From: Alphaproteobacteria bacterium
GTDB lineage: Bacteria > Pseudomonadota > Alphaproteobacteria > UBA828
DNA length: 64,000 bases
Direction: 5' to 3'
Assembly (NCBI GenBank): GCA_965220745.1
Contig: CBDCQT010000011.1
Coordinates: 334,985-398,984, forward strand
Each line of letters begins with the position of its first letter. Positions within the stretch are counted from its first letter, which is position 1. This document shows positions 59,736 through 64,000 of this stretch, in pieces. The translations under genes were made by a program, and so were the position numbers. The notes under the pieces were generated by a model. That model had not been told where the DNA came from and did no database searches. It saw only the letters and a program-made list of their open reading frames with translations.

Positions 59736-59911
59736 CGTGAGAGAGAGCCGCGCCGCACCTCGCTCGCGCGGCAAGACCCAGCGCCAGAGGGCCGATTATC
59801 GTGACATGAGGCGCGAGCGCGATCCAGCAAGCGGGGCATGCCGAATTTTGCGGTCGTGTGTCGCGGCCGTAACGCCCACCATCATCCACGCAGGAATGGC
59901 TGCTTCAAACT

Positions 59912-60022
59912 TGCGCGTAGCATTTTGAGCAGCACAAATAACAGTATACGCAAAAATATCCTGCGCATAAGATTGAAAATTGCGCGTATGTGAGTTATGT
60001 TGCGCTTAAGTCTATACGCGCA
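59912..60022. promoter_or_regulatory. array of TGCGCRTA-like motifs (putative operator array) at the Fic gene 5-prime end
   Basis: Direct copies at 59912 (TGCGCGTA), 59962 (TGCGCATA), 59981 (TGCGCGTA) and 60001 (TGCGCTTA). Inverted copies at 59945-59952 and 60013-60022. The segment is AT-rich (22/60 G+C for 59941-60000). Confidence 0.5.
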
Positions 60023-61453
60023 ATATTGGGTGACAATGTGGCTAGGCGCATCAGAGAAAAGGACCTGCAGGCGATAGAGAAGGTTGTGCGAAGGCATCCA
60101 GAAGGCATGACCGCGCGGGAGATTAGAAGGATTCTGGAGGCTCCACCGGCTCACCGCACCCTACAATATCGCCTCAAGTCTCTCGTCGACAACAATCGCC
60201 TGACGATGGAGGGCTCGGGCCGCTGGGCACGCTACCGCGTTCCTCGGGTCGTTCCAGTTGAGTTGCAGTTTGGTCCAGCCGACGTCTCGGCAAGCCTTGG
60301 CCTGAGCGTCATCGTCGAACCAAAACTCTCTGAGGCTGCCAGTGAAATCCGGGATTATGTGCGACAGCCGGTCGCTGCGCGCGAGCCGGTCGGATATGAC
60401 ACTGAGTTCCTCGGTGCGTACCGGCCTAACTACACCTTCTATCTTTCGCAGGTCGAGCGCGTACGACTCTGGGAGGTCGGCAAACCCGAGGTGGCTGAAG
60501 AGCCCGCCGGCACCCATGCCAAGCGGATACTGAGCAGGCTCTTGATAGATCTCTCTTGGAATTCGAGCCGCCTGGAGGGCAACACGTATTCCCTGCTCGA
60601 CACCGCGCGCCTGATCGAAGCGGGGGAGGAAGCGGAAGGAAGGGACCGGCGCGACGCGCAGATGATCATCAACCATAAGGAGGCTATCGCATTTCTCGTC
60701 GACACGGCGGGGGACATCGGGTTCAACCGCTACACCATCCTCAATCTTCACGCGGTGCTGGCGGATAACCTGCTTCCAGACCCAGATGCAGCGGGCCGTC
60801 TCCGGCGCAGCGTCGTCGGTATCGCTTTCTCGGTCTATCACCCGCTGGAGGTGCCGCAGCTCATCGAGGAGTGCTTCGACCAAATTCTTGCCAAGGCTTC
60901 CTTGATCGACGACCCCTTTGAGCAGGCTTTGTTTGCGATGGTGCAGTTCCCCTATCTGCAGCCGTTCGAGGACGTCAACAAGCGGGTGTCCCGGCTCGCC
61001 GCCAACATCCCGCTAATCAGGGCGAACTTAGCGCCGCTTTCCTTCGAGGACGTGCCGCGCGAGCTCTACACGGAAGCGGTGCTTGGCGTCTACGAGCTGA
61101 ACCGGGTCGAGCTCCTTCGGGACGCATTCGTCTGGGCATACGAGCGGTCCGCACGTCGTTATGGCGCGATTCGGCAGTCGCTCGGCGAACCGGATCCTTT
61201 TCGGATGCGGCATCGGACGGAAATGCGCACGCTAGTCTGCGACGTCGTTCGCGGAGGTATGGATAAAGGGGGGGCGAGCGACCATATCGCCGCGTGGGTG
61301 GAACAGCACGTCGATGAGCGGGAGCAGGAGCGATTTCGCGAAGTCGCTGAGCGAGAGCTGTTGAGCCTTCACAGCGGCAACTTCGCTCGCTATCGCGTCA
61401 CGCCCGGCGAGTTCGCCGCCTGGCATGAGGCTTGGCAACAGCGAAAAGCGTAG
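59990..61453 (+). CDS. Fic/DOC family protein with N-terminal winged-helix domain and a degenerate active-site motif
   Basis: Fic core FAMVQFPYLQPFEDVNKRVSRLAAN (canonical HPFxDGNGRxxR). EGN inhibitory-helix-type motif SSRLEGNTYSL. N-terminal wHTH MTAREIRRILE...LQYRLKSLVDNNRL. The start is uncertain (GTG at 59990 or GTG at 60038). Confidence 0.8.
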   Translation: MSYVALKSIRAILGDNVARRIREKDLQAIEKVVRRHPEGMTAREIRRILEAPPAHRTLQYRLKSLVDNNRLTMEGSGRWARYRVPRVVPVELQFGPADVSASLGLSVIVEPKLSEAASEIRDYVRQPVAAREPVGYDTEFLGAYRPNYTFYLSQVERVRLWEVGKPEVAEEPAGTHAKRILSRLLIDLSWNSSRLEGNTYSLLDTARLIEAGEEAEGRDRRDAQMIINHKEAIAFLVDTAGDIGFNRYTILNLHAVLADNLLPDPDAAGRLRRSVVGIAFSVYHPLEVPQLIEECFDQILAKASLIDDPFEQALFAMVQFPYLQPFEDVNKRVSRLAANIPLIRANLAPLSFEDVPRELYTEAVLGVYELNRVELLRDAFVWAYERSARRYGAIRQSLGEPDPFRMRHRTEMRTLVCDVVRGGMDKGGASDHIAAWVEQHVDEREQERFREVAERELLSLHSGNFARYRVTPGEFAAWHEAWQQRKA

Positions 61454-61676
61454 TCTCATCAAGCTCCCCGTGGTGCCGCGTAGGCCCCCACGCACGACGC
61501 CAGCCCACAAATCGACCGGCGCAAATTGATTGCGCAGGCCGGGGTCTCGCTCTACTGTCACCATCCGGCCCCGAACCAGACGGCATCGCCTGCCTTTGCG
61601 GCCTTGATGGCGAGTGGAGCCCGCGTGCCGTCGCCAGGGAACGGGCCGGACCCGCGAACGATGCGCGGAGGGGAAT

Positions 61677-63120: not shown

Positions 63121-63267
63121 GACGCACGGAGAGTAACCCGCCGCGCAGCCGGGGCAAGGGGGAGGGCCGATCGCGGAAATTCGCCGAACGCCCGGCATAC
63201 CTCCTTCCAGCGACAGGCATAATCCCGTACTCTAGAGCGCGACAGGGGCCCCCTTGACAAGCGGTGC

Positions 63268-63282
63268 GAACCAAACTAGAAC
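63268..63282 (+). promoter_or_regulatory. alphaproteobacterial-type SOS box (GAAC-N7-GAAC) in the lexA promoter
   Basis: GAACcaaactaGAAC, 46 nt upstream of the lexA ATG. TTGACA at 63254-63259 lies 17 nt before TAGAAC (63277-63282), so the box overlaps a putative -10. Confidence 0.75.
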
Positions 63283-63327
63283 ATATGCAGACGGTTTCCC
63301 TTTTGTTCGATTTCGCGGAGTTTGCCG

Positions 63328-64000
63328 ATGCTGACCAGGAAACAAAAGGAACTCCTGCTTTTCATCGATTCCTATCTTGATCAACGCGGCATCGCTCCTT
63401 CGTTCGAGGAAATGAAGGAAGCGGTCAATCTCAAGTCCAAGTCCGGTATCCACAGGCTCGTCAAGGCGCTTGAGGAGCGCGGATTCCTGCGACGATTGCC
63501 GCATCGGGCGCGGGCGCTGGAAGTATTGAGGCCGCCACCCTCCCGCGTTGCCGAGGTGCCGGAGCGGCAACCGAGCCGGCGCTTCCGGCCGAGCGTCATC
63601 AAGGGCGATTTCCGTTCCGGACGGGGCACCGAGCGGCCATCAGACGATCGGGCGATCGTTGCGCTGCCGCTCTATGGCCGCATTGCCGCCGGCACGCCGA
63701 TCGAGGCATTGCGCGACGAGACCAACCAGATCGATGTTCCGGGCGGAATGCTGGGGGCAGGCGAGCATTACGCCCTCGAAGTCGACGGCGATTCGATGAT
63801 CGACATCGGAATTCTGGACGGCGACACCGCCGTGATCGAACGCTGCGAGACCGCCGAGAGCGGCGACATTGTCGTGGCTTTGGTGGATGATAGCGAAGTC
63901 ACGCTCAAGCGGCTGCGGCAGAAGGGCGAGTCGGTTGCGCTGGAGCCCGCGAACACGCGCTACGAGACGCGGATTTTCGGCCCCGGCCGGGTCAAGGTGC
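63328..64000 (+). CDS. lexA: LexA repressor (3-prime end runs off window)
   Basis: Hand translation: [56 protein letters not shown]...[15 protein letters not shown]...[15 protein letters not shown]...VTLKRL. Contains the AG cleavage site and the Ser/Lys dyad context. Confidence 0.9.

Follow-up and report, generated by a model that had tools for sequence, protein, structure and literature searches.

Near the right end of the 64,000-nt stretch of alphaproteobacterial DNA analyzed here (contig CBDCQT010000011.1, positions 334,985 to 398,984; the whole stretch is called the window below) lies a solitary gene for a protein of the Fic fold in which glutamine takes the place of the catalytic histidine. 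A preliminary description, made from the letters of the window, had presented it as a winged-helix Fic protein with a degenerate, Doc-like active site, standing in a lower-GC segment behind an AT-rich promoter with a motif array, possibly of mobile origin, and either repurposed as a regulator or binding module or acting as a non-canonical enzyme. Comparison with homologs indicates that the glutamine motif is the norm of a large family rather than a private lesion of this copy. Most of the earlier picture holds, with a different start codon and a different place within the Fic fold.

Gene, fold and active site

The open reading frame (ORF) 59990–61453 of the preliminary description is present on the plus strand in the ORF list of the window. 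Its true start, however, is most likely the GTG at 60038, which gives a protein of 471 aa, and 59990 lies too far upstream: homologs begin with MARRIRE or MVRRIRE at this point, with GTG or ATG preceded by a Shine-Dalgarno sequence. The 48 nt ahead of 60038 that had been counted as coding consist of operator-like DNA. A public gene call of the same protein (P0002; 448 aa, Met40, window position 60107) is too short and probably mis-annotated, as the winged helix would lose its first two helices. The gene is intact, and purifying selection acts on it. Its reading frame is unbroken, no internal stop occurs in 78 of 80 homologous genome loci, and the pairwise ratio of nonsynonymous to synonymous substitution rates (dN/dS) within the genus is 0.14–0.32 for the whole gene and 0.12–0.27 for the Fic part.

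Four parts can be distinguished in the AlphaFold2 model of the protein, which was built from a 90-sequence alignment and used for secondary structure and per-residue confidence (predicted local distance difference test, pLDDT; mean 91.9) only: a winged helix, a disordered linker, a Fic region with N-terminal helices and an all-helical C-terminus. The winged helix-turn-helix (wHTH) proposed earlier for the N-terminus reappears in the model as a helix-helix-helix-strand-strand succession over residues 7–67, with residues 39–51 (HRTLQYRLKSLVD) as the predicted recognition helix; sequence matches to known HTH families are weak (HTH_20 at 0.16; with the family profile, BlaI at 0.036 and ArsR at 0.19). 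The Fic region matches Pfam Fic (PF02661) over residues 246–340 (E=4e-11, 44 bits against a cut-off of 24). No Pfam or NCBIfam match was obtained for the C-terminal domain, which contains the conserved blocks EPDPFR and LHEGN.ARYR, and no NCBIfam family matched the protein as a whole.

By sequence and modeled fold the protein classifies as a class II, FICD-like Fic. FICD and Fic-1 were matched at 5e-12 by sequence, and a Foldseek search against the PDB ranked FICD/HYPE and FIC-1 first (probability 1.0 and TM score 0.57–0.62 on the target for FICD), followed by bacterial class II Fic proteins and those of the SoFic type. Retained features include the inhibitory helix in cis, the flap GRLR...GSVYxP, the DPFE helix and a loop with F, D, N, R and the final R. 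Of the earlier assignment to the Doc subgroup, the resemblance of the NKR triplet to Doc stands, but the class assignment does not: the final Arg is kept, and a profile search of the PDB that recovered FICD at 8e-17 returned no Doc chain at E<=10, which rules out Doc membership.

The positions given earlier for the Fic signature QPFEDVNKRVSR and the inhibitory-helix motif SSRLEG are exact to the base. In a HMMER alignment with FICD and C. elegans FIC-1, the Gln is aligned with the catalytic His and VNK with GNG. The canonical HxFx(D/E)GNGRxxR with its catalytic His is thus not matched, while F, D, N, R and R are retained. The inhibitory-helix motif had been called intact, and it is almost invariant in the family as well, with WNSSRLEG present in 75 of 80 genome loci and SSRLEG in 92 of 150 representatives.

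How widely is the glutamine variant shared? A word-seeded search returned at least 8000 candidates, the 120 best of which are 67–84% identical and 465–470 aa long; among these close homologs QPF[DE]DVNKR[VT]SR occurs in 117 of 121 sequences. When representatives at 50% identity were searched exhaustively with HMMER, 784 clusters matched at E<1e-30, and the best 150 of the 784 representatives give the consensus Q-[PA]-F-x-D-[VG]-N-K-R-x-[SA]-R, with SSRLEG or a near variant retained. Q..NKR..R and SxxxEG stand together in 111 of the 144 motif-bearing representatives. No part of the protein is better conserved across hundreds of clusters than the inhibitory SxxxEG and the pocket residues D, N, K, R and R. 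Conservation of Q/VNK in a clade, the check proposed with the first reading, is therefore borne out in the close homologs and extends to most diverged representatives. The pattern by which the gene would have been taken for a decaying copy, close homologs with HPFxDGNGR beside other lesions here, was not found, and the pseudogene reading is ruled out by the family-wide conservation of the motif together with the dN/dS values. We conclude that the gene belongs to a specialized family.

Not all members retain the whole pocket. About 17% of the representative clusters have undergone further losses (D, K, first R) and are still full length. Such degraded-loop relatives, 37–50% identical (P0128, P0135, P0141, P0173, P0175, P0186, P0199, P0214, P0223, P0250, P0265, P0267 and P0271 among them), show loops such as QPFDDLNKC, QPFAGLNEP, QPFEHLNNN and QPFHHGSLV; the last Arg is always kept, and the inhibitory Glu is also lost in about half. 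Their persistence at full length after these losses suggests that catalysis, or even nucleotide binding, is dispensable in those lineages. The variant N-termini of longer relatives comprise other HTH-like domains or nothing recognizable, and no other kind of domain.

Promoter and operator-like array

The AT-rich promoter with a motif array noted in the preliminary description can be specified further. The predicted sigma-70-like promoter (Table 1) matches the consensus at 9 of 12 positions, two such sites being found where 0.3 are expected in shuffled sequence, and its TTGA...TAnnnT layout is also seen at homologous loci. Around it, six sites with a TGCGC core, four direct and two inverted, are packed into 132 bp, where about 0.007 would be expected at the genome density of 0.052 per kb. 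O6 and O4 belong to a 14-nt inverted repeat (59976–59989 / 60014–60027) that is 93% complementary. A scan of the 4.82-Mb genome identified this as the sole cluster of at least three core sites, with no second cluster of the motif; 42 isolated strict TTGCGCNTA sites are scattered elsewhere in the genome. The arrangement recurs in six further paralogous or orthologous loci of the genus, located at two chromosomal positions: an inverted pair lies farthest out, three direct sites spaced by about 20 bp come next, then a single inverted site, and after it the Shine-Dalgarno sequence and the GTG start.

Table 1. Features of the cassette and its surroundings (window coordinates)
Feature	Position	Strand	Remarks
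Inserted cassette	59838..61522	+	promoter/operator region, Fic gene and short tail, ~1.7 kb (~1685 bp); same site empty in closest relatives
Operator-like site O1, TGCGCGTA	59912..59919	+	direct; equivalent position kept in genus paralogs
Operator-like site O2, TATACGCAA	59945..59953	-	inverted, degenerate
Operator-like site O3, TGCGCATA	59962..59969	+	just upstream of, and abutting, the -35
Predicted sigma-70-like promoter	59973..60001	+	-35 TTGAAA 59973-59978; 17-nt spacer; -10 TATGTT 59996-60001
Operator-like site O4, TGCGCGTA	59981..59988	+	inside the promoter spacer
Operator-like site O5, TGCGCTTA	60001..60008	+	at the -10 / transcription start; abuts the -10
Operator-like site O6, TACGCGCA	60015..60022	-	inverted; just downstream of the -10
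wHTH-Fic(Gln) coding sequence, 471 aa	60038..61453	+	probable start GTG 60038; stop 61451-61453
N-terminal wHTH, residues 1-70	60038..60247	+	AlphaFold2 helices (H) and strands (E) H7-18, H26-32, H39-51, E56-58, E65-67; pLDDT >90
Disordered, fast-evolving linker, residues 72-89	60251..60304	+	pLDDT <50; dN/dS 0.4-0.8, poorly alignable
Inhibitory-helix motif SSRLEG, residues 176-181 (471-aa numbering)	60563..60580	+	class II (S/T)xxxE(G/N); aligns to the FICD inhibitory helix
Fic signature position QPFEDVNKRVSR, Q308...R319	60959..60994	+	His replaced by Gln, GNG by VNK; final Arg kept
All-helical C-terminal domain, residues 376-471	61163..61450	+	AlphaFold2 helices H387-470
Palindrome GCGCAAATTGATTGCGC	61519..61535		at or just past the right junction, before the bactofilin gene; TTGCGC half-site as in the operators

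The array is not confined to the genus. A 7-mer repeated at least three times within 170 nt upstream of the gene was found in 67 of 77 homologs from many phyla, against 8.6% of 4675 control windows, and at least four repeats in 53% of homologs against 0.7% of controls. The repeated word varies by lineage (TTGCGCxTA, TGGCGCGAT, TGTCGCGAT, TAGCGACAT and others), and it appears to do so together with the recognition helix: where the residue following RTLQ is Y, F or H, the word contains TTGCG at 49 of 49 loci, and where it is R, the word contains TGGCG or TGTCG at 17 of 22. Joint change of recognition helix and operator word is suggested by these associations but not proven. The view of the protein as a DNA-binding regulator accordingly gains from predicted operator arrays that are conserved across phyla and vary with the recognition helix.

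Further support for this pairing comes from within the genus. Compared with its closest congener (G006), the window shows 94–99% identity from about 60550 through the end of the gene and past it (to 61990) and only 24–67% over 59800–60500, which covers the promoter, operators, wHTH and linker; the synonymous divergence between the two is 0.03 at the C-terminus and 1.59 in the wHTH. The drop in identity implies that promoter, operators, wHTH and linker were replaced as one block. The gene thus appears, from these alignments, to be a recombination mosaic with the crossover in the conserved inhibitory-helix region, and the joint exchange of operators and wHTH lends the wHTH-operator pairing independent support.

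Insertion, neighborhood and spread

The gene is a horizontally acquired accessory cassette that has been exchanged between phyla and is carried on plasmids, so that the mobile origin once raised as a possibility is now backed by precise empty sites in relatives and by a gene tree that mixes phyla. In three genomes with flanks 88–96% identical to those of the window (G001, G008 and G011), homology ends at 59833–59837 and resumes at 61523, with 2–7 nt in between, placing the insert in the rluB-bactofilin intergenic region. Its right edge may lie nearer to about 61470, because G018, G002 and G004 share the sequence that follows this point. The lower-GC segment described earlier coincides with the insert, which has 59.8% GC (40.6% in the promoter) against 66.6% in the window; along the sequence, GC is about 0.70 in the flanks and 0.49–0.63 across the gene, and GC at third codon positions is 72% compared with 82–91% in four neighboring genes.

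This genome has one copy of the gene. The gene or a remnant of it is present in 8 of 21 genomes of the genus and in none of the other genera of the family. The same site is occupied in G006, G004 and G003, the last of which holds a 3' remnant only: about 137 final codons are left at its rluB-bactofilin site (L008/L017), indicating loss of the cassette by 5' deletion. A second lineage of the gene resides at another site in G001, G007, G008 and G009 (L004–L007), the empty form of which is found in this genome outside the window (contig C11:230044-230056). The insert at this second site begins about 250 nt upstream of the start codon, ends 0–3 nt after the stop and replaces 11 nt beside a native terminator hairpin. 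No recombinase, consistent terminal repeats or target-site duplication was detected at either insertion site. Transposon-like ends were considered and rejected, the apparent 16-nt terminal inverted repeat of the first site being absent from the second.

The palindrome at the right junction is intact in all four occupied sites and in two of nine empty sites, whereas CCTAA... forms the left half at the other empty sites. The palindrome may or may not belong to the cassette: it could be native, a scar or an additional binding site.

The flanking genes are of the housekeeping kind (acyl-CoA synthetase, RsmD-type methyltransferase, RluB/RsuA-type pseudouridine synthase, bactofilin and endonuclease III). 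All-against-all clustering of 949 neighboring ORFs showed no neighbor family in more than 8 of the 80 loci, and this lack of a recurrent neighbor rules out a partner gene or operon. In a few loci a SIR2-like ORF overlaps the Fic gene (L043 and two others), and elsewhere a tyrosine-integrase-like or an MmeI/PglX-like ORF lies 0.8 kb downstream (L041 and three others; L037 and two others); these neighbors suggest island or defense contexts in some lineages only. At the end of the window, a LexA gene divergent from endonuclease III runs off the edge (63322–63999), and the intergenic region before it (63200–63320) has lower GC (0.54).

Exchange over long distances is evident from the maximum-likelihood tree of the family, where phyla are mixed with good branch support: the clade that contains the two lineages of the genus also includes Acidobacteriota and Chromatiales, Binatia are nested in Paracoccaceae, and Desulfomicrobium groups with Burkholderiales. 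Homologs occur on 34 plasmid records, all annotated just as 'Fic family protein', including plasmids of cultured Cereibacter, Cupriavidus, Rhizobium and Aromatoleum. Among phage records there was no homolog of the family, the sole match being one remote canonical Fic.

Known relatives and possible function

The motif clade has already been described in silico. Khater and Mohanty (2015, Sci Rep 5:10804, PMC4454073) defined a clade D2 from 45 sequences with the consensus Qx[F|Y]x[D|E][G|V]NKR; in their account it is restricted to bacteria, its function is left open, and the change of His to Gln as well as selection for the variant are remarked upon. QPFEDVNKR of the present protein fits this consensus, with Gln for the catalytic His and a Doc-like NKR, and the gene would be one more member of an uncharacterized kind. 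The family delineated here differs from D2 as portrayed in that paper: it comprises about 780 clusters at 50% identity and has three domains with FICD as the nearest relative, whereas D2 is called 'usually single-domain' and placed with Doc. The passages on D2 that were retrieved mention neither operator arrays nor mobility, and 'HTH' has 0 occurrences in the text of the paper. Full-text searches of the literature retrieved no experimental study of a Gln-type Fic.

Better studied Fic proteins resemble the present one in part. FICD/HYPE and C. elegans FIC-1 (PDB 4u04, 6i7g, 5jj6), the best matches by sequence and fold, have in common with it an N-terminal inhibitory helix containing (S/T)xxxE(G/N), a flap, a DPxE helix and a Fic loop with D, N and R..R; FICD differs in its catalytic His and GNG, in having tetratricopeptide repeat domains in place of the wHTH and in its known target BiP, and identity is about 20%. 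CccR of Yersinia pseudotuberculosis likewise joins Fic and a DNA-binding domain in one chain and represses its own promoter (PMC9755527), autorepression being shown for CccR and predicted here. It has, however, a canonical motif and the order Fic then HTH, it is an effector secreted by the type VI secretion system, and its His192 is required for FtsZ AMPylation and toxicity (PMC9755527). SoFic-type proteins (Shewanella SO_4266, PDB 3eqx/3zcn) are single-gene systems that also combine a winged helix with an inhibitory Glu in the same chain. The PADLOC model for SoFic matches at E=2.7e-11 over core residues 180–347 only; Foldseek hits SoFic as well, and the match is much weaker than that to FICD. 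In SoFic the wHTH is C-terminal instead of N-terminal, the His and GNG are canonical, and AMPylation of EF-Tu is demonstrated. With a match limited to the core and the His absent, the protein does not qualify as a SoFic defense system. Doc of phage P1 (Phd-Doc) has the N-K-R triplet of the signature loop in common with it, but Doc keeps the His, lacks the final Arg (R319, invariant here) and has A or G where Val stands here; it is also only about 125 aa long, without an inhibitory helix and with Phd as antitoxin, compared with 471 aa, three domains and no conserved neighbor. In FicT/FicA toxin-antitoxin pairs a separate antitoxin gene supplies the inhibitory helix, whereas here the motif is in cis and no conserved ORF is adjacent.

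What, then, could the cassette do? We regard as moderately probable that it encodes a DNA-binding protein that represses its own gene and has an auto-inhibited Fic pocket without His, used to bind a ligand or for some non-canonical chemistry. The cassette would be self-contained, with one promoter and one gene. Judging from the comparative evidence, the winged helix would bind the six TGCGC-core sites that flank or overlap the -35, spacer, -10 and start region, and binding at sites that overlap the promoter would entail repression of its own transcription. The sequence observations that bear on a putative autoregulated wHTH repressor are that the predicted sites overlap the -35, spacer and -10, are conserved and covary with the helix, the covariation comprising 3–4 independent contrasts. 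Residue conservation indicates that the pocket is probably not a canonical AMP-transferase, because it is devoid of the general base. The Asp for metal binding, the Asn and the two Arg residues are nevertheless still in place, together with the flap and the inhibitory Glu (of a predicted Glu-Arg lock), and the pocket would most likely bind a nucleotide or another phospho-ligand. Coupled to DNA binding, such a pocket may serve as a gated regulatory or sensor module; if it is an enzyme at all, it would be a slow and non-canonical one. In this genome the cassette has neither a partner gene nor a second multi-site target.

Three considerations weigh against this interpretation. In the main clade, D-V-N-K-R..R and the inhibitory Glu hardly vary, a degree of conservation that exceeds what a scaffold would need and fits an active enzyme. 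A repressor acting on itself alone has no obvious benefit for the host, which implies that an effector activity or a target in trans is probably missing from the picture. Lastly, in a tree built without the wHTH columns, the association of helix and operator reduces to 3–4 independent changes, two going the same way and none the opposite way, and it cannot reach significance. As for the choice offered at the outset between a repurposed regulator or binding module and a non-canonical enzyme, our analysis supports a specialized family and is compatible with either.

The main rival to self-repression with a gated pocket, possible though on balance unlikely, is an active, His-independent Gln-Fic enzyme within a one-protein toxin-immunity or abortive-infection defense module. 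Its chemistry could be, for example, Doc-like phosphoryl transfer from an inverted nucleoside triphosphate, or a transfer whose acceptor nucleophile requires no base; the wHTH would keep expression low and the inhibitory Glu would keep the enzyme off until a trigger, such as phage infection, releases it. The exceptional conservation of the pocket residues and SxxxEG across hundreds of clusters agrees with such an enzyme. Against this stand the family-wide absence of the general-base His, whose mutation inactivates CccR and other Fic toxins (PMC9755527), and the persistence of the clusters that have lost further catalytic residues. The PADLOC models for PDC-S04, a candidate defense family, and for SoFic match the Fic core (5e-19 and 3e-11), and SoFic is described as a single-gene Fic defense toxin (PMC12249575), but these matches span the generic Fic core only. 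Also in its favor, the gene is solitary, patchy in distribution, horizontally mobile and plasmid-borne, and some homologs have integrase, MmeI/PglX-like methylase or SIR2-like genes beside them, whereas the 80 loci show no enrichment of defense neighborhoods and the family is absent from phages. A more far-reaching version, which we consider speculative and improbable as a whole, would see in the family widespread one-protein, self-repressed selfish or defense modules, whose pocket with Gln, a Doc-like Lys, a gamma-phosphate Arg and the inhibitory Glu would perform a His-independent reaction new to Fido, released by a trigger and coupled to phased operator occupancy.

Distinctly less probable is a conventional transcription factor with host targets, in which the Fic fold would be nothing but an oligomerization or effector-binding domain and the protein a pure pseudoenzyme regulating a regulon. 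It shares the wHTH and operator logic with the self-repressing reading, and the 42 isolated TTGCGCNTA sites, the TTGCGC palindrome before the downstream bactofilin gene and the three homologous loci with an overlapping SIR2-like ORF count in its favor. There is, however, no second multi-site array in the genome, the palindrome is also present in two genomes without the gene, and most congeners lack the gene, whose insertion sites also differ, so that no conserved host regulon can depend on it. We find it very improbable that the protein helps its cassette to spread or persist, as a Fic-fold enzyme acting on DNA or recombination factors at the TTGCGC arrays, which would make it a new one-gene mobile element. 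A unit running from promoter to stop that occupies different sites, has nearly exact empty counterparts and lacks a recombinase, an insert ending 0–3 nt past the stop codon at the second site and the TTGCGC half-site at the junction of the first are in keeping with that idea. The lack of consistent terminal repeats and target-site duplication speaks against it, as do the second junction, which has no TTGCGC and where 11 nt are replaced and not duplicated, the single copy per genome, and a genus distribution that also fits vertical descent with losses in two clades plus homologous recombination. That the gene is what remains of a canonical Fic toxin, inactive and in decay, for which one might cite the missing His and the 137-codon remnant in G003, is hardly credible given that the Gln motif is the family norm, the frame is intact, dN/dS is low and the fold is confidently modeled.

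The defining feature of Fic enzymes is a catalytic histidine, which hundreds of diverged clusters across many phyla and on plasmids replace with glutamine while they keep the rest of the pocket together with the auto-inhibitory Glu. At the level of the window, the locus represents an ordinary insertion of an accessory gene between housekeeping genes rather than a broken toxin. The small, self-contained cassette and the plasmid homologs in cultured bacteria make the question of its function directly testable, and the answer would reveal either a new chemistry of the Fido fold or a large class of Fic pseudoenzymes that act as ligand-gated repressors.

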